From a virus (Duplodnaviria; Heunggongvirae; Uroviricota; Caudoviricetes), in the IMG/VR virus record IMGVR_UViG_2529293069_000032: DNA of 39,738 bases; one strand, written 5' to 3'. This document shows, in pieces, positions 6,275 to 13,609 of this stretch; within the stretch, counting starts at the first letter, position 1; each line of letters starts with the position of its first letter. The translations under genes and the position numbers were made by a program. A model generated the notes under the pieces. It saw only the letters and a list, made by a program, of their open reading frames with translations. It was not told where the DNA came from and did not search any database.

Positions 6275-9097
6275 ATGACGGCAGAGTACATCAGGGACTG
6301 GCAACAACCGCGCCACGCAGTGGGGCGTGAAGGAACGGGGATCCCCGCTCCTGAATCCGCGCTTTCCTCCTGGCTGGATGCCTACCGGGTAGAGAACGAG
6401 CGCCGCCAGGAAATGGCTGATGCGGCGTTCTCCGCAACGCCGCTGGGCAACCTGATTAATAAAAGCCTGGACGCACAGGAAAAACAGGACAAAACCATCA
6501 CACTGGCAGGAGACGCCAGAAAACAGGCACGCGGTGCGGTGGATGAAGCCATGGCCTCGCTGCGCCTGCTGCCGTCCTATCTGCGCGATCCGCTTATTCG
6601 CCACCTCTCCTTCCTGCGCAAAAAACAGGAAGCCGATCGTCAGAAAGGCAAAAAGAGCTGGCAGGCTGAACGCTACGCGCGCGGAAACCTGCGCAAAATA
6701 TTCGAACGTCTGGAGCGCACCGATCACCGCTGGCTGACACAGGGTTATCGCTCCCTTGCCGGACGCGAACGCCTGGACGATTTGCTTTACCTGCCGCAGC
6801 TCAACAAACACCAGATACAGACGCTGGCCACCATGACGGCGGCGATGTTCAGCAGCACCTTCGAAAAACTCTGCGATGGCTTTGGCGCGACCGATGGCGA
6901 ACTGACCATGGATGTAACGCTGAAGGCGTATCAGATGCTGGCCCGCATGGCGTTACACCTGCACGCCATGCCTCCACATTATGACGCACTGACAACAGAC
7001 AAAGACCGGAGGAACGAACCGGACACGGAGCTGCTGCCGGGCGCAATCCTTCGCCTGACCTGTGCGGAATGGTGGAAACGCAAACTGTGGCTGTTACGTT
7101 GCGAGTGGAGAGAAGAACAACTCCGCGCCGCCTGTCTGGTTTCCAGAAAAACATCGCCCTATCTGAGCCAGGACGCGTTAAGCGAGTTTCGCGCACAGCG
7201 CGAGAAAACACGCGATTTCCTGAAAAGTTTCATGCTGGAAAACGAAGACGGGTTCACGATTGATCTCGAGACAGTGTATTACGCGGGAGTAAGTAACCCG
7301 GTTCACCGTAAGGCAGAAATGATGGCCACCATGAAGGGGCTGGAACTTCTGGCCGAAGCCCGTGGCGACAAAGCGGTGTTTCTGACTGTCACCTGCCCGT
7401 CAAAATACCACGCTACAACAGAGAACGGTCATCCGAATCCCAAATGGAACGGGGCCACCATGCGCGACTCCAGCGATTACCTGGTTAACACGTTTTTTGC
7501 GGCGGTCCGCAAGAAACTGAACCGCGACGGCCTGCGCTGGTATGGCATCCGCACGGTGGAGCCTCACCATGACGGCACCGTGCACTGGCATATGATGGTC
7601 TTTGCTCATCCGGAAGAAATCGACACCATTGTGTCCCACACCCGCGATATTGCCATTCAGGAAGATCGTCACGAGCTGGGCGATGATATTACTCCGCGCT
7701 TTAAGGCGGAGTATGTCGACGGCTCAAAAGGCACGCCAACCAGCTACATCGCCACCTACATCGGAAAAAACCTGGACAGCCGCGCCGTGGATGGCATCGA
7801 CCCGAAAACAGGCAAACCACGCGTTGACCACGAAACCGGAAAATCAATGACCGAGAGCGTGGAACGCGCCATTGGCTGGGCGCGCCTTCACCGGGTCCGC
7901 CAGTTCCAGTTCTTTGGCATCCCCTCCCGTCAGGTGTGGCGTGAACTGCGTCGCCTTGCCAGCCAGATGGCACGCAACCCGGAAGGCCCGCAACGGCTGA
8001 AGGATGACGCAATGGATGCGGTTCTTGCTGCCGCTGATGCCGGATGTTTTGCCACCTACATTGAGAAACAGGGAGGCGTACTTGTTCCACGCAAGGACTA
8101 CCTGATTCGCACCGCCTACGACCTCGCAGATGAGCTGAACGATTACGGCGAACAGAGCGTACAGATTTACGGGATCTGGTCACCACTCATCGGGGAATCC
8201 TCCCGTGTGTGCACGCACCCGGATAACTGGAAGCTGGTAAGACGTAAACCGGGAGTAGAAGACAGCGCCCGCGAAAATGGTTTTGACCTTCAGGGCGGCC
8301 CTGCCGCCCCTTGGACTCGTGGCAATAACTGTCCCCGTGTACAGGAAACGGACAACAACGGGACAGAACAGCCGGAAGAACGGCCAGCACCGTGGCCGCA
8401 GCTTCCTGACGGCGTTGACGTGAACGAATGGATGCGCTCACTGAAACGGCACGAACGCCGGGCGCTGATGCGTTCGCTTCGTGACAAACAGGCAAAAAAC
8501 AGCAGTGATGAAATGCAGAGCTGGACACAGAGCCGCAAACAGCAGCGGCCTTTGCCTGATAACCACGAATTACTCGCTAAAGAATGGCGGGAGTCTGCTG
8601 AATCTCTCGGCCTGCATATCGGTGAACAACAGATGCAGCACCTGTTACGGGGCGGCAGTCTGTACGTTGACGGCAGCATCATTGCACCGCAGGGATTTGA
8701 AATTGTACGCAAACCGGATACCCGCCCGGACAGCCGAATCACGCAGCTCTGGCAGCGCCTGAGCCGTAATCATGGCGTAAGCAGCACGGAGATCCGCCAT
8801 AACCCGGTCGCCAGCTATCTGGCACAGCTGGGGGCATCAGACCCTGAAGCCGCCGCACGCCTGGCATCCACACTTCAGCAGGACCAGAACACCATGAAAA
8901 CACCCGTTACCGTGCTTTCTGACATGCTGCGCGCCATCCGCGACGCAGAGCACGCACAGAGAATCAGTGAAACCACTGAACGCGCCAGCCGCAAAGCAGA
9001 CCTGCTGCGGGGTGGCCTGACCAGTGGAAACAAAAAACAGACAGAAACGGGACTCACAAATCCCGTAAATGAGCAAAAAACGCGCCGCGATATATGA
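6275..9097 (+). CDS. A: Rolling-circle replication initiation endonuclease (P2 gpA family), with long C-terminal extension
   Basis: 940 aa; HUH-type motif TVHWHMMVF and surrounding GPA-family pattern; canonical P2 A is about 760 aa, so about 180 aa of Q/R-rich C-terminal extension. Confidence 0.85.
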   Translation: MTAEYIRDWQQPRHAVGREGTGIPAPESALSSWLDAYRVENERRQEMADAAFSATPLGNLINKSLDAQEKQDKTITLAGDARKQARGAVDEAMASLRLLPSYLRDPLIRHLSFLRKKQEADRQKGKKSWQAERYARGNLRKIFERLERTDHRWLTQGYRSLAGRERLDDLLYLPQLNKHQIQTLATMTAAMFSSTFEKLCDGFGATDGELTMDVTLKAYQMLARMALHLHAMPPHYDALTTDKDRRNEPDTELLPGAILRLTCAEWWKRKLWLLRCEWREEQLRAACLVSRKTSPYLSQDALSEFRAQREKTRDFLKSFMLENEDGFTIDLETVYYAGVSNPVHRKAEMMATMKGLELLAEARGDKAVFLTVTCPSKYHATTENGHPNPKWNGATMRDSSDYLVNTFFAAVRKKLNRDGLRWYGIRTVEPHHDGTVHWHMMVFAHPEEIDTIVSHTRDIAIQEDRHELGDDITPRFKAEYVDGSKGTPTSYIATYIGKNLDSRAVDGIDPKTGKPRVDHETGKSMTESVERAIGWARLHRVRQFQFFGIPSRQVWRELRRLASQMARNPEGPQRLKDDAMDAVLAAADAGCFATYIEKQGGVLVPRKDYLIRTAYDLADELNDYGEQSVQIYGIWSPLIGESSRVCTHPDNWKLVRRKPGVEDSARENGFDLQGGPAAPWTRGNNCPRVQETDNNGTEQPEERPAPWPQLPDGVDVNEWMRSLKRHERRALMRSLRDKQAKNSSDEMQSWTQSRKQQRPLPDNHELLAKEWRESAESLGLHIGEQQMQHLLRGGSLYVDGSIIAPQGFEIVRKPDTRPDSRITQLWQRLSRNHGVSSTEIRHNPVASYLAQLGASDPEAAARLASTLQQDQNTMKTPVTVLSDMLRAIRDAEHAQRISETTERASRKADLLRGGLTSGNKKQTETGLTNPVNEQKTRRDI

Positions 9098-9173: not shown

Positions 9174-10133
9174 ATGAAAATTTGTATCGACGACGGCTCC
9201 ACCAACATCAAGCTGGCATGGACTGAGAACGGCGAACGCCGCAACGCCATCAGCCCGAACAGCTTCAAGTCGGAATGGTCTGCGCCATTCGGTGGCACGC
9301 AGCCCGCGAACTACATGCTTGATGGCGTGCGCTATGGTTTTGATCCGGTCAGCGATCGCTTTGTCCAGACGACCGACACGCAATACCAGTACAGCGATGT
9401 GAATGTAATTGCCATTCATCACGCGCTGGTCAAATCAGGCATCACACCACAGGAAGTGGATGTGGTTGTCACCCTGCCACTGAGCGAGTATTTCGATACA
9501 AACGCACAGCCGGACATGGCCAACATCAACCGCAAAAAAGCGAACGTCATGCGCCCGGTGGAGTACCAGAACGGCGAAGCATTCACTATCCGTAACGTAC
9601 GGGTTATGCCTGAATCCATTCCTGCTGGCTTTAAGGCACTGGCTGACATGAGTCCGTTTGAATCCCTGCTGATTGTGGATTTGGGCGGAACCACGCTGGA
9701 TGTGGCAAAGGTTCAGGGGCAACTGGCAGGTATCAGCCAGGTGTTTTGCGATCCACACGTAGGCGTTTCTCTGATGGCCGATGCCGTACTGTCGGTGATG
9801 GCCACTAACGGTATGCGCACCAGTCACCACATCGCCAATACCATTATCGAACATCGCCATGATGAAGCCTGGCTGCGCCAGCACATCCACAATGACGCGC
9901 ATTACGCCAGCCTGATGGCGGTTATTCGTGAAAAGGAAGAAACACTGAAACAACGCGTGATCCGCGCGCTGGCGGTTTTTTCGGGTTACGGGCGGGTGAT
10001 GGTTGTCGGTGGCGGGGCGGAGATTGTGGCACCCGCTATCCGCGAAGCCTGCGGAGTTAATGCGACTTTCATCGCGGACGGGGTGCCACAGTTTGCTCTG
10101 GTTAATGGGTTGTACGCAATGAACAAGGAGTAA
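9174..10133 (+). CDS. parM: ParM/StbA-family actin-like segregation ATPase
   Basis: 319 aa; N-terminal MKICIDDGSTNIKLAW phosphate-1 motif; ISPNSFK, YSDVNV-A-HHAL, NI-RKKAN, VMPESIPAG, LLIVDLGGTTLD, VMVVGGGAE blocks match recalled R1 ParM. Confidence 0.8.
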   Translation: MKICIDDGSTNIKLAWTENGERRNAISPNSFKSEWSAPFGGTQPANYMLDGVRYGFDPVSDRFVQTTDTQYQYSDVNVIAIHHALVKSGITPQEVDVVVTLPLSEYFDTNAQPDMANINRKKANVMRPVEYQNGEAFTIRNVRVMPESIPAGFKALADMSPFESLLIVDLGGTTLDVAKVQGQLAGISQVFCDPHVGVSLMADAVLSVMATNGMRTSHHIANTIIEHRHDEAWLRQHIHNDAHYASLMAVIREKEETLKQRVIRALAVFSGYGRVMVVGGGAEIVAPAIREACGVNATFIADGVPQFALVNGLYAMNKE

Positions 10134-10137
10134 ACCA

Positions 10138-10452
10138 ATGACGACACCAACCAGACGGATAAGTTTCTATCTGAAGCCCGCCGCCGTCAAGAGTGAACAG
10201 GAGGCGTGCAATTACCTCGATAGCCTGCCAGCCTCCGAACGCAGCCGCGCGCAACGCGCGGCCTTTCTGGCTGGGCTAGCACTCATAAAGCGCAACCCAG
10301 CATTTGCCTACTGGATGGCCGAATGGCCAGAGGACAACCTCCCCTTCAATACCGTTAGCATCAAGGAAACATACCAGGCTAATCAGCCTAGCGGAGTTGA
10401 ATGCAATTTTTATAAAATAAAAAAGAATATTCAGACCTTATTCCCAGAATAA
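10138..10452 (+). CDS. parR: ParR-like centromere-binding adaptor
   Basis: 104 aa directly after parM; N-terminal pattern R-I-F-L-P ... LDSLPASERSRAQRAAFLAGLAL resembles recalled R1 ParR. Confidence 0.55.
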   Translation: MTTPTRRISFYLKPAAVKSEQEACNYLDSLPASERSRAQRAAFLAGLALIKRNPAFAYWMAEWPEDNLPFNTVSIKETYQANQPSGVECNFYKIKKNIQTLFPE

Positions 10453-10500
10453 TCTGATAATTGTATGTGAACTAATAAAATACATACCAACACATCATTC

Positions 10501-10523
10501 TGGCACCCTTGCAACAGGGTGCC
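10501..10523. terminator. Bidirectional hairpin between convergent parR and cargo gene
   Basis: GGCACCC-loop-GGGTGCC inverted repeat in the 82-bp convergent gap. Confidence 0.45.
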
Positions 10524-10534
10524 AATGTTTCAAA

Positions 10535-11377
10535 TCATGATGAAATTGCCGAAGTTTTTTTATCGTGCTGAAGTACCGCAAATGCCATTAAAACCTCAAG
10601 AGAATAGCGGCGATAATACTTAACAAAACCATAATAAAATACTCGGGATGCAGCAAGACAAAACAAGAGAAGAAAACAAAAAGGTAACAGCCTGATATTT
10701 ATATCTATTAAAAAGGATAGAGGGAACAGACATATAAGCAACCAGACTGAAGCGAGAAAAACAAATGTAATGTTTCTACAAAAACCATACAAAGCAACAT
10801 AGTTTTGCATTTTCACCTGATGATTTTTAGAATGCTCATACACATAATGATAAGCAAGGCGAAAAAGATCGCCCCTCAAGCCCTTACGTCGATATAGCGT
10901 AGATACAGAAAAAACATTTATATAACCATCTCGTATTTGCGGCCAAAAGACTTTAATAAGTATAGAATGCAGTGTGGTTTTATGATGTTCTGCTTTATCA
11001 AAAACTGATACAGGAAGTAGAAAAACTCCACGAATAAAATGAACTATACTGAACTTAGTATTATGTCGTTTTATTTTCAGGGGACTTCTTTTAGAAAACA
11101 GATAAATTGAAGGATACCCAAGTTTACTGTTCATATATTTTTCAATTAAACAGGATGATAGAATAGATATGAAGTGACCTGAAATATATGACAGAACAAT
11201 TAATACCACATATATAAACACACTTATTATTTCTTTATATTTCAGGATGTGGTTAAAAACACCTTCTATATAAACAGGGTTAATTTCAATAGAAAACAAA
11301 AAAAGGATAAACAGGAATAACCCACCTGGAATTAGATAGCCCAAAAAGTCATAAAATGAAAACGGATTCTGTGTCAC
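10535..11377 (-). CDS. Polytopic membrane protein (cargo gene 2, unknown function)
   Basis: 280 aa; several hydrophobic helices (FLGYLIPGGLFLFILFLFSI, IISVFIYVVLIVLSYISGHFISIL, NITFVFLASVWLLICLFPLSFLI, LLPFCFLLLFCLAA); AT-rich; GTG start after AGGGGGAAG SD. Confidence 0.7.
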   Translation of the reverse strand: MTQNPFSFYDFLGYLIPGGLFLFILFLFSIEINPVYIEGVFNHILKYKEIISVFIYVVLIVLSYISGHFISILSSCLIEKYMNSKLGYPSIYLFSKRSPLKIKRHNTKFSIVHFIRGVFLLPVSVFDKAEHHKTTLHSILIKVFWPQIRDGYINVFSVSTLYRRKGLRGDLFRLAYHYVYEHSKNHQVKMQNYVALYGFCRNITFVFLASVWLLICLFPLSFLIDINIRLLPFCFLLLFCLAASRVFYYGFVKYYRRYSLEVLMAFAVLQHDKKTSAISS

Positions 11378-11416
11378 ACTTCCCCCTGTGTTACTTGTAA
11401 ATTAAAGGGTAAAACA

Positions 11417-11914
11417 TTATTTGTTTTTCCGTAAAGGATTAGCTTTCCATCTTCTTACTAACCATTCGAATTCTTGATATGTAGTATCCGAATTAATGCT
11501 TTCTCTGATTGCTTTAATTAATGGCTCGGCAATATCATATGTCTCTACAACTGTTGTGTAAGATGTTCTTTTTATCATTTTTTCATCATAAATACCTTCA
11601 CGAATACTTACAGCAACTCGCTCGTAAAAATTTAAAATATATTGAAATTTTCGACGCTCGGCCATTTCCTCATCTGTTATTGTACAACCATCACAAGGAA
11701 AAACATAAGAACGAAATGATTTGCCTGAACGATGCACTTGTTTCAGGGTATGCAATGACTCTATATATTGCATATCTTGCCGACTCTCAAAAAGAAAGTT
11801 AGCCGTTTGAGTTTTCTTTGCGGTACGCACATTGTAGATAATGGTTCCAATGGCAACCAAAACGCCAAGCAGAACAATAGCATTGCTGATGATTTGTAGT
11901 GTTATTGGGTTCAT
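11417..11914 (-). CDS. Single-pass membrane protein with soluble C-terminal domain (cargo gene 1, unknown function)
   Basis: 165 aa; N-terminal helix (LQIISNAIVLLGVLVAIGTIIY) then charged soluble domain; AT-rich; 39 bp upstream of gene 2. Confidence 0.7.
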   Translation of the reverse strand: MNPITLQIISNAIVLLGVLVAIGTIIYNVRTAKKTQTANFLFESRQDMQYIESLHTLKQVHRSGKSFRSYVFPCDGCTITDEEMAERRKFQYILNFYERVAVSIREGIYDEKMIKRTSYTTVVETYDIAEPLIKAIRESINSDTTYQEFEWLVRRWKANPLRKNK

Positions 11915-11933
11915 CCTATTTCATCCATAAAAA

Positions 11934-11955
11934 AGGCGGGGAGCAAATCCCCGCC
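11934..11955. other. GC-rich palindrome GGCGGGGA-GCAAA-TCCCCGCC: minus-strand intrinsic terminator/attenuator or cos-related element
   Basis: 8-bp stem followed by T6 on the minus strand immediately 5' of cargo gene 1; AGGCGGGGA resembles part of the recalled P2/186 cohesive-end sequence. Confidence 0.35.
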
Positions 11956-12111
11956 TCATTAGAGGTCAACGTAGCTTAGAAACCATCAAATTCATCATAC
12001 ATTTTTTTCATATCAACCCCCTCATAGAAATCATAACCACGTTTTGTGGTTTTTGTGACGCATAAACTACATCAAAGGCAAGCTACGGTCAAATATATGG
12101 GCATGCTTACC

Positions 12112-12138
12112 TGCACAAAAGTGCACAAATTTGCACAA
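12112..12138. repeat. Three helically phased TGCACAA direct repeats (10-bp period)
   Basis: TGCACAAAAG TGCACAAATT TGCACAATTT read directly; nearby GGATCCGT x2 at about 12182-12200 and palindrome AAAAAAACGCGTTTTTT at about 12208-12226. Confidence 0.6.
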
Positions 12139-12511
12139 TTTTTTTGAACGACTTTTTGCCCTTCCGGCCCGCGTGGCGGCTGGATCCGTCAGGGATCCGT
12201 GCGTGCACAAAAAAACGCGTTTTTTCTGCGCGCAGGTGACGGGGGAACAGCCCGCGTTTCAGGGGGTAAATAGCATTCCATGAACGATGTCGCAGCGACA
12301 CAACAGAATGGCTGTATTTCTCACACTGAGCGTGAAAAAGACGTGAGGGCTTTTGATTTGATGGGGTGACAGATAAGGCAGTCAAAATCGCACTGAGGCG
12401 GCAAGAACATGCAGTCAACGCGGTGGGATTGCGTAAGAGCCTGATCGTCGATGATGGCGATAAGCTGGAAGACGTCGTGAAATTATCTGATTGATACAGG
12501 AGCTGGAGAGT

Positions 12512-12536
12512 CGGGGCATAAATTTTTTATGCCCCG
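12512..12536. terminator. Hairpin just downstream of portal gene stop (possible terminator)
   Basis: GGGGCATAAA-TTT-TTTATGCCCC perfect 10-bp stem; no clear U-tract. Confidence 0.35.
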
Positions 12537-12562: not shown

Positions 12563-13609
12563 TCAGGATGTGGGCTGGGTGTCTAACAGTGCGTAAGGGT
12601 TAAAGCGGATCACCTCTTCGCCAAGCCAGTCATTGATGTGCTTCATGGCCTCCATGACGGGCATCAGCTCGTTAATTGCGTAAACCCGCGCGGCCTTCTC
12701 CACATCACCAAACGCACTTTTTTCGCCCGGCATCGCCCCCATCAGTTGCGGCGGAACGCGGTGCGCAGCCAGCACATCATCACGGGATGCCGCCTTAACA
12801 TTCATGAACTCATCCTTTGCGGTGATCTGCTGGAACGGCAAAATTTGCACACCTTCTTTGCCCCCGTTGGGCGCATGGATGAGCACGTTTTTAAACGCAC
12901 CACCACCACGCGCGCCCTGTAACGTTTCTTTCAGGGAGTCCATGCTTTCGCGGTTTACCTGCGCTGCACCAATGTAGATGATGCACCCGGCGTGGGATCC
13001 GTTGTCGTAGTACAGTTTTCTGAACATGTCCGCCGAATGAGAAAGGCTGGCCGAGAGTAATGCGCCAAGATATTCCGGCATGCCGTAGATTTCCTGGTTA
13101 ATATCCGGATTCATCAGATGGCACACTTTACTAGGGCGAAACTGAAACGCGTCCTTGCCATCCTGCACATACCACCATGATTCAAGATCGCTTCCGCGTC
13201 GCATGTATTTCGCCAGGGCGTGCCGTAATTTAAGCGGTTCGCCGAGCATATTGCTTCGAAGCTCAAGGAATGCGTTACCGAACACAAACCAGTCCAGCGC
13301 CAGCGCCGAGAAATCCTGCCGGGAAAGCAGCGGGTGCGGGATGTAGCAACCGAGTAATACATTGCGCTTAAAGTAAAGCGCAGACTGATGCCAGGACGTT
13401 TGCCGGGCAGCTCTTGCCAGACCGTACCAGTCCACCGGGGTTTCATACCACCGCCCGTTATCAGCACAGTACATGTTGTCCAGCAGGTCATGCCCGGTCA
13501 GGCGATAAGGACCATCAAATGTGAATGCACTGAGCGATGATTCTTTCCTGAGCGCATCAGCGAGATCAATGCGTGAACTCATGCGTACTTTTTTATTTTT
13601 TCTGCTCAT
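12563..13609 (-). CDS. Q: Portal protein (P2 gpQ-like)
   Basis: 348 aa (P2 Q about 344 aa); adjacent to and overlapping the start of terminase gene P; canonical Q-P pair. Confidence 0.85.
   Translation of the reverse strand: MSRKNKKVRMSSRIDLADALRKESSLSAFTFDGPYRLTGHDLLDNMYCADNGRWYETPVDWYGLARAARQTSWHQSALYFKRNVLLGCYIPHPLLSRQDFSALALDWFVFGNAFLELRSNMLGEPLKLRHALAKYMRRGSDLESWWYVQDGKDAFQFRPSKVCHLMNPDINQEIYGMPEYLGALLSASLSHSADMFRKLYYDNGSHAGCIIYIGAAQVNRESMDSLKETLQGARGGGAFKNVLIHAPNGGKEGVQILPFQQITAKDEFMNVKAASRDDVLAAHRVPPQLMGAMPGEKSAFGDVEKAARVYAINELMPVMEAMKHINDWLGEEVIRFNPYALLDTQPTS

Follow-up and report, generated by a model that had tools for sequence, protein, structure and literature searches.

The stretch of viral DNA analysed here (39,738 nucleotides, IMG/VR record IMGVR_UViG_2529293069_000032; hereafter the window) carries a P2-like prophage (Peduoviridae), and its query region is 100% identical to a prophage located beside yecA/tyrP in the Escherichia coli O157:H7 strain 493/89. 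Here, we focused on two neighbouring genes, g1 and g2, which occupy the hotspot that holds tin and old in P2. The gene g1 (11417-11914, minus strand) starts with ATG and encodes 165 amino acids (aa), and g2 (10535-11377, minus strand) lies behind it after a gap of 39 bp, starts with GTG and encodes 280 aa. The gene order is gpA, ParM, a ParR-like gene, g2, g1, a cos-like site, portal Q and terminase P. The gpA gene (Phage_GPA, 6275-9097), ParM (9174-10133) and the ParR/StbB-like gene (10138-10452) are on the plus strand, Q (12563-13609) and P, which lies beyond Q, are on the minus strand, and the cos-like sequence GGTGACGGGGGAACAGCCC is found at 12235-12253 between g1 and Q. The GC content was 0.351 for g1, 0.323 for g2 and 0.346 for the cassette, compared with 0.508 for the window. 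Other E. coli P2-like prophages share the backbone up to 10485 and again from about 12111-12112, and on this basis the variable region that holds the hotspot cargo, including both genes, was placed at 10486..12111.

An earlier sequence-only reading had described this region as an undescribed two-gene defence or exclusion module. Its outline agrees with our coordinates, GC values and transmembrane (TM) predictions: two AT-rich genes, 39 bp apart, encode a 165-aa protein with one TM helix and a 280-aa polytopic protein, and they sit in the P2 tin/old position with gpA and parMR on one side and cos and Q on the other. The statement that the cassette runs opposite to the flanking phage genes holds for gpA and parMR but not for Q and P, which share its strand. 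Both hairpins said to bracket the cassette are present. One is a GC-rich hairpin, GGCACCCT-GTTGCA-AGGGTGCC (10502-10523), which falls within the variable region, where the parR-like gene and g2 converge, and has a T-run on neither strand, and the other, which includes T6 (11957-11929), stands upstream of g1.

The two open reading frames (ORFs) are real genes and not chance ORFs, since both match known protein families and g2 has more than 1,000 homologue clusters. The protein g1 is a member of Pfam DUF4760 (PF15956), its sole Pfam match, at 120.1 bits against a gathering cut-off of 25 (E 1e-34) over profile positions 2-141 of 141, and it also matches phrog_2284 (4e-74). One TM helix was predicted at residues 8-26, in agreement with the Phobius result given in Table S5B of Rousset et al. 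(2022, PMC9122126), and this anchor is followed by an all-helical domain whose predicted location is cytoplasmic. Among DUF4760 proteins, the basic residues R45, R68, K115 and R137 are invariant and K34 is nearly invariant. The protein g2 matches phrog_12528 (5e-70) and no Pfam family. Hydropathy placed four TM helices at about residues 12-30, 50-68, 206-224 and 230-248, and Phobius also gives four in the same published table. The g2 family comprises 1,061 clusters at 50% identity (E ≤ 1e-3) from Gammaproteobacteria, Bacteroidota, Firmicutes, Verrucomicrobiota, Acidobacteriota and others, with F6, D10, Y14, Y64, G67, S74, E79, H177, H186, G198, R201 and K253 invariant and H68 nearly invariant. 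The sequence-only reading had recognised no known family in either protein and had proposed profile searches. Those run here (Pfam, PADLOC) returned no validated defence system, in line with that view, but they assigned g1 to DUF4760 and linked the g2 family to models of Csx27.

Three phage records and 289 of 5,426 complete E. coli genomes (about 5%, ST131 and some O157 strains among them) contain the cassette. It is not undescribed: the same pair is listed as the P2-hotspot "System #3 (DUF4760)" in Table S5B of Rousset et al. (2022, PMC9122126), where its 1,102 occurrences among 18,150 loci make it the third commonest E. coli P2-hotspot system. The proteins in that table are about 96-99% identical to g1 and g2, and the RefSeq accessions found here occur in Table S5A. 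The cassette of the window is the same, with one protein of one TM and one of four TM, and there it is catalogued only, as a pair; the parts of the text and tables available to us do not mention the leader, the independence of the genes, the Csx27 link or the fold described below. We also considered whether g1 and g2 had already been tested in that study. The N-termini of both proteins are absent from its Table S2 of cloned systems, and the construct derived from O157:H7 FRIK944 is a P4 cytidine deaminase and not this cassette. At 1,102 published loci and about 5% of complete genomes, the two genes are abundant hotspot cargo.

The distribution of insertion sequences (IS) around this cargo was also recorded. 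In typical O157:H7 genomes (matches H63-H73, e.g., NZ_CP016625.1 FRIK944), homology stops at 10485, 33 bp past the stop codon of the parR-like gene, at an IS3-family transposase; these genomes lack g1 and g2, which are retained in 493/89, LSU61, PV15-279 and F3113. From these alignments, the cassette seems to have been lost or replaced through an IS event in the typical O157:H7 lineage. In some other E. coli genomes (H17-H19, e.g., NZ_CP013031.1), the match to 10300-12200 is split by the IS4-like IS421 transposase.

We then compared the loci of homologues by hidden Markov model (HMM) scans. The gene g2 was found in 0 of 44 diverged g1 loci, and g1 in 0 of 53 viral and 0 of 88 further g2 loci; among all the loci scanned, both genes occurred together only in the E. 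coli cassette. In Xenorhabdus, Pectobacterium and relatives at 88% identity, this same slot, the one immediately downstream of Q, holds g1 without g2. A g1 relative at 58% identity is chromosomal, with an ABC transporter on one side and a GGDEF operon on the other, and others that are more distant lie between tail genes of lambda-like type (L, K, I, J) or close to Bro-N, Arc and integrase genes. Similarly, a common 44%-identical relative of g2 stands alone in lambdoid prophages beside yfdP/Q/R-like genes, and a 67%-identical g2 allele also adjoins parR. In one contig (L234), the g1 module is 100% identical to the window at the nucleotide level from 12145 to about 11426; over g2 the identity is lower, at 73-97%, until it rises again beyond about 10650. 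Its g2 protein is 86% identical, with 39 synonymous and 38 non-synonymous codon differences. This drop in identity indicates a recombination breakpoint at the g1|g2 junction.

These data bear on the view that g1 and g2 form an obligate two-component defence system, a sensor plus a membrane effector in either order. The 39-bp spacing, the shared strand, the lack of a terminator between the genes together with a Shine-Dalgarno (SD) sequence of g2 itself, and their constant association within E. coli (289 genomes) all fit such a pair; moreover, it was curated as one system, and sensor-plus-TM-effector pairs are common at these hotspots (Rousset et al. 2022). However, the scans separated the two genes at every diverged locus, a lone g1 sits in the identical P2 slot, and the divergence of the two genes is discordant, with a breakpoint between them. 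Constant linkage in E. coli is not evidence of co-function either, because it represents one lineage (at least 95% identity) and counts as a single event. We consider an obligate pair very unlikely. The comparisons argue instead that g1 and g2 are independently exchangeable single-gene modules and not a co-evolved pair, and the description of the locus as a two-gene module does not extend beyond one E. coli P2/parMR lineage, outside which the two genes occur apart; they also recombine at their junction. Being two separable modules, each gene deserves separate testing, g1 with its native leader.

The region upstream of g1 carries a compact leader. A candidate sigma-70 promoter can be read at 12064..12092 on the minus strand (TTGACC, 17-nt spacer, TAGTTT), with a like arrangement at the same position in Xenorhabdus (TTGACT-17-TAGATT) and Pectobacterium (TTGACT-17-TAACTT); a consensus promoter scan picked another candidate, GTCACA-18-TATGAT, at 12059-12030. 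On the same strand, an 11-codon micro-ORF, MKKMYDEFDGF (stop included in 11976..12011), follows a strong SD, GAGGGGG. A small 5-bp hairpin (UGGUU-UCUA-AGCUA, 11972..11985) encloses the stop codon of this upstream ORF (uORF), the sequence ACCTCT lies at 11966-11961 between it and the terminator, and the terminator scan identified an intrinsic terminator, GAGGCGGGGA-TTTGC-TCCCCGCCTT plus T6 (11929..11957), with a 10-bp stem containing 7 GC pairs and a 5-nt loop. The end of the terminator is 15 nt from the ATG of g1.

This arrangement is conserved across the family. Among 27 distinct DUF4760 genes, with protein identities as low as 33%, 26 are preceded by an 8-12-codon uORF with an SD, which is strong in every case. 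The uORFs end in (D/E)(E)F(D/E)GF or ..DG(F/L) before the stop, and the peptides include M[KR]K[ML]FDEFDGF, MKKFDEFEGF, MNLYEEFDGF, MTFKRDDYEGF, MRDVIDGL and MKDVIGGF. Of the 27 distinct leaders, 26 contain a terminator; its stem occurs in at least 8 different sequences, which keep complementarity, and the distance from stop codon to stem is mostly 16-24 nt. When the last six sense codons of 23 leaders were compared, variation occurred at 0/6 first, 0/6 second and 6/6 third codon positions, while all 15 positions past the uORF stop vary. This codon-position pattern indicates that selection acts on the peptide. RNAalifold analysis of 14 leaders predicted a stop-codon hairpin of 5 pairs, and at two of these pairs compensatory double changes from CG to UA were seen, each in 3 sequences. 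The minimum free energy (MFE) folds contain the terminator and a stop-codon hairpin, and those of the Enterobacterales leaders also pair the uORF SD with ACCUCU. No Rfam family reached its gathering score in the leader. We rejected read-through of the uORF stop codon into g1, because the downstream frame is not conserved between leaders. The DUF4760 leader of micro-ORF, stop-codon hairpin and terminator is apparently newly described here.

The proposal of the sequence-only reading that a hairpin with T6 attenuates g1 gains support from these results, in that this hairpin is the terminator in a leader conserved across the family; attenuation as such is what this arrangement suggests. Like leader-peptide attenuators (trpL/pheL, antibiotic-responsive leaders, tnaC/speFL), the g1 leader combines an SD, a short uORF and a terminator with a conserved C-terminus of the peptide. 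Unlike them, it has no identified antiterminator or runs of regulatory codons, its terminator lies 16-24 nt past the stop, and its peptide motif is also found away from terminators. This strongly conserved element could be a new ribosome-dependent switch or one half of a peptide-protein pair.

The second of these options holds that the micro-peptide and DUF4760 form a unit, in which the peptide (8-12 aa, ending in FDEFDGF-COOH) acts in trans as a ligand, inhibitor or antitoxin of DUF4760, or on another target, with the terminator yielding far more peptide than protein; it would be compatible with defence. Selection at the peptide level and the strong SD agree with this, as do the peptide variants, which track the DUF4760 clades (VIDGL and VIGGF accompany proteins of 33-38% identity), and the conserved basic residues of DUF4760 (K34, R45, R68, K115 and R137). 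A scan of IMG/VR for the codons of the motif gave 36 sites, 27 of them directly upstream of DUF4760, and the other 9 include free micro-ORFs, a tandem version (MLDEFEGFDEFDGF before the stop) and a T4-like small ORF. In these contexts without DUF4760, the motif looks like a short linear binding motif, and a trans-acting role in this form is conceivable because the motif also occurs away from DUF4760. On the other hand, the constrained spacing from stop codon to terminator and the covarying stop-codon hairpin fit a cis role at least equally well. We regard a peptide-DUF4760 unit as rather unlikely.

The DUF4760-free sites have features of their own. The micro-ORFs MFDEFDGF, MLDEFEGFDEFDGF (tandem) and MKAFDEFDGF carry an SD in phage contigs without a downstream DUF4760 gene (L208 857-880 on the minus strand, L228 4922-5032, L213 6140-6238 and L233 3065-3310), and a few hundred bases downstream of two of them are holin/endolysin-like genes. 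In Enterobacter/Cronobacter phages (Karamvirus, e.g., CC31, PG7 and Pet-CM3-4), a small ORF that ends in FDEEDFDFFDEFDGF or LRKFDEEDFDFFDEFDGF before its stop codon stands directly upstream of gp47/gp46 (Mre11/Rad50-like) and is followed by a GC hairpin (L205 11632-11739, L212 10663-10743, L199 and L203). We could not give this small ORF a name, as it is annotated only as "hypothetical protein". Its tail presumably resembles acidic-aromatic C-termini of the kind that bind sliding clamps or the partners of single-stranded DNA-binding protein (SSB).

Structure prediction, also proposed by the sequence-only reading, was informative for g1 but not for g2, whose AlphaFold2 model (17-sequence alignment) had a predicted local distance difference test (pLDDT) score of 56, too poor for a fold search. 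The g1 model, from a 20-sequence alignment, was all helical with high confidence (pLDDT 92.3, predicted template-modelling score 0.79). Foldseek returned EDS1 chains as the sole targets with a query template-modelling score (TMq) above 0.5 (0.52-0.59), with E-values that were not significant. The plant proteins EDS1/PAD4/SAG101 were the sole strong structural matches, and the model presumably shares the fold of their EP domain, the closest among solved structures. Because the query is all helical, the match must presumably be to the helical EP domain and not to the lipase-like domain. A fold search of BFVD gave one unnamed viral match. No sequence link to the EDS1 family was found: Pfam EDS1_EP did not match, and a profile search of the PDB returned no EDS1, PAD4 or SAG101. 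Unlike the EP-domain proteins, g1 has no lipase-like domain and is anchored by a TM helix, the identity is 7-10%, and no TIR, cyclase or conserved partner was found beside g1 homologues in 55 loci. As judged from the model, the likeness is an unexplained fold resemblance and not family membership. We also rejected homology of g1 to the one-TM proteins of the AC1 2TM+1TM+TIR and RT-nitrilase systems, for which the hhalign probability was below 1%.

The fold and the leader together allow a bolder idea, that DUF4760 and its micro-peptide make up a new type of self-contained phage-borne immune or signalling module. DUF4760 would then be a membrane-anchored prokaryotic or viral counterpart of the EP domain that senses a small molecule or an acidic-aromatic C-terminal peptide. 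The FDEFDGF micro-ORF would gate it, in cis through ribosome arrest on the leader or in trans with the peptide serving as ligand or antitoxin. We consider this quite unlikely. If the EP-like fold does reflect shared ancestry or mechanism, the plant EDS1 EP domain would gain a relative outside seed plants.

For g2, the only PADLOC match was the Csx27 model (E 4e-5, 22 bits, residues 6-241). The same model matched 63 of 77 diverse members of the g2 family (best 2e-10), and NCBIfam CAS_Csx27 matched 15 of 77 (best 2e-6) and not g2 itself; the tm_4 model matched 20 of 77, and matches to PDC-M48A were weak. Like Csx27, the accessory protein of type VI-B1 Cas13b, g2 has four TM helices, and the two independent HMMs match family members nearly end to end. 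Unlike Csx27, g2 is about 280 aa long against a 206-position profile and has a central loop of about 130 residues. Its flanks are the parR-like and DUF4760 genes with no cas13b or CRISPR array nearby, and no recurrent large neighbour was found in 88 family loci. Competence, ubiquitin and WYL genes, the described neighbours of the Csx27 family, were likewise not seen among the g2-family loci examined. These profile matches suggest that g2 belongs to a broad Csx27-like 4-TM family, with a link that is clear at the family level and weak for g2 alone; g2 is not Csx27 sensu stricto, because there is no cas13b nearby. Profile searches found no relative of the g2 family with a solved structure. Csx27-family proteins have been predicted to be membrane channels for ssDNA (Makarova et al. 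2019, as summarised in PMC7642515). The link makes an E. coli prophage a practical model in which to study a widespread 4-TM family with members beside Cas13b.

No conserved partner of g2 was detected in the 88 loci, which come from diverse bacteria and viruses. Some neighbours of the family are PIN_8 genes, restriction-modification parts and integrases, and the best candidate, PIN_8, occurs in only 6-8 Bacteroidota loci. In these Bacteroides/Prevotella loci (L173, L181, L182, L198 and others), the Csx27-like gene comes right after a same-strand PIN_8 gene of about 326 aa, and a further 93-aa gene is sometimes present. PIN_8 and the Csx27-like gene may be a genuine two-gene system in this Bacteroidales clade.

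Given the hotspot position, the AT-rich cargo and its abundance, we propose that the slot holds two stacked, independent single-gene inner-membrane-protein morons, each plausibly protective, an account that we hold with evenly balanced confidence. Module 1 would consist of promoter, leader and g1, and module 2 of g2. A transcript from the module's own promoter would meet the well-translated micro-ORF, the stop-codon hairpin and then the terminator before it reaches g1, so that g1 would be made only through terminator read-through, at a low basal level in the lysogen and at a higher level when read-through rises, either by the state of the ribosome on the micro-ORF or by heavy late transcription from P/Q. 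In this lineage g2 came to lie right behind g1, and it is probably co-transcribed with g1, since it has its own SD (GGGGGA) and no terminator intervenes. Each protein would act alone at the inner membrane and protect the lysogen or the phage from other phages by blocking DNA entry or by membrane-based abortive infection. From the sequences and their context, we give each gene about an even chance of acting in defence or exclusion. Upon testing, 3 of 8 further P2-hotspot systems were active (Rousset et al. 2022).

Several results weigh against this proposal. The proteins of the window match no validated defence model in PADLOC, Pfam, NCBIfam or PHROGs; in particular, g1 has no match in PADLOC-DB v2.0 at E values up to 1 and none in NCBIfam. 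A full-text literature search (DUF4760, accessions, leader peptide) found no functional study of g1 or g2, and "DUF4760" itself led to one unrelated Serratia paper. The immediate neighbours of g2-family genes are mostly not defence genes, and cargo without a defence role, such as parMR and cdt, is also known from the P2 hotspot (Rousset et al. 2022). As the two genes are always together in E. coli, they may interact functionally in that lineage. For the leader, the MFE folds contained no helix that competes with the terminator, and the 16-24 nt spacing puts the terminator outside the footprint of a ribosome on the stop codon. Since no antiterminator was found and a stop-codon ribosome cannot reach the terminator, regulated attenuation is something that we infer, and the terminator could merely fix a low level of g1.

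Another explanation is that the genes are non-defence cargo that serves the phage cycle (lysis timing, DNA transit) or host physiology (lysogenic conversion, stress, envelope). In this P2-like prophage the late P-Q operon is followed immediately by g1 in the same orientation, and in siphophages the gene lies inside tail operons, so antiterminated or heavy late transcription could express it. Glycosyltransferases and housekeeping genes are among the neighbours of g2, and the Csx27 family, predicted as DNA channels, is reportedly linked to competence and not to defence. The non-defence cargo of the hotspot points the same way (Rousset et al. 2022). However, both are AT-rich accessory genes that occur patchily and can be exchanged between unrelated phages, which is typical of morons that benefit the host or lysogen, and the cassette is dispensable for the phage, because typical O157:H7 prophages seem to have lost it to an IS. 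For these reasons, we find a non-defence role doubtful, and independent, possibly protective morons remain our preferred interpretation.

Known systems offer partial parallels to the proposed morons. Like tin and old of P2, g1 and g2 are stacked, independent, AT-rich single genes that share one hotspot, located between A and cos, and are prophage-expressed (Rousset et al. 2022). Unlike g1 and g2, tin and old encode unrelated proteins (Old is an ATPase-nuclease and Tin is soluble), have no micro-ORF/terminator leader and are shown to work. HK97 gp15, SieB, RexB and Rst_2TM_1TM_TIR (P2-like AC1) are likewise small TM proteins encoded by prophage morons, and DUF4760 also occurs among lambda-like tail genes; no homology to these systems was found, PADLOC being negative for g1 and hhalign to the AC1 1TM protein giving less than 1%. 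What is new here lies mainly in the DUF4760 leader, the EP-like fold and the Csx27 link, the cassette being neither undescribed nor a two-gene system.

Some further features of the flanking backbone were noted. The gpA endonuclease has 940 aa here compared with about 711-845 aa in the Xenorhabdus/Pectobacterium relatives; its Phage_GPA domain covers only residues 179-503, and the long C-terminal half carries no annotation. At 9174-10452, a ParM/StbA actin-like ATPase gene and a Plasmid_stab_B (ParR-like) gene share the hotspot with g1 and g2. With 4,592 counts, the ParM/ParR pair is the commonest P2-hotspot cargo (Rousset et al. 2022), which suggests that prophages of this type may be maintained as plasmids. 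Between the cos-like site and the border of the cargo, three TGTGCA(C/A) repeats lie at 12111-12150 on the minus strand (aaaaaattgtgcaaatttgtgcacttttgtgcag), and their position is kept in Xenorhabdus and Pectobacterium P2-like prophages; they may be a putative protein-binding site of the backbone (cosB or terminase) at the edge of the hotspot. Finally, a hairpin, GGGGCATAAAAAATTTATGCCCC, is found at 12510-12535 on the minus strand, right after the stop codon of portal Q. It could end the late P-Q transcript before cos, which bears on whether late transcription reaches g1.

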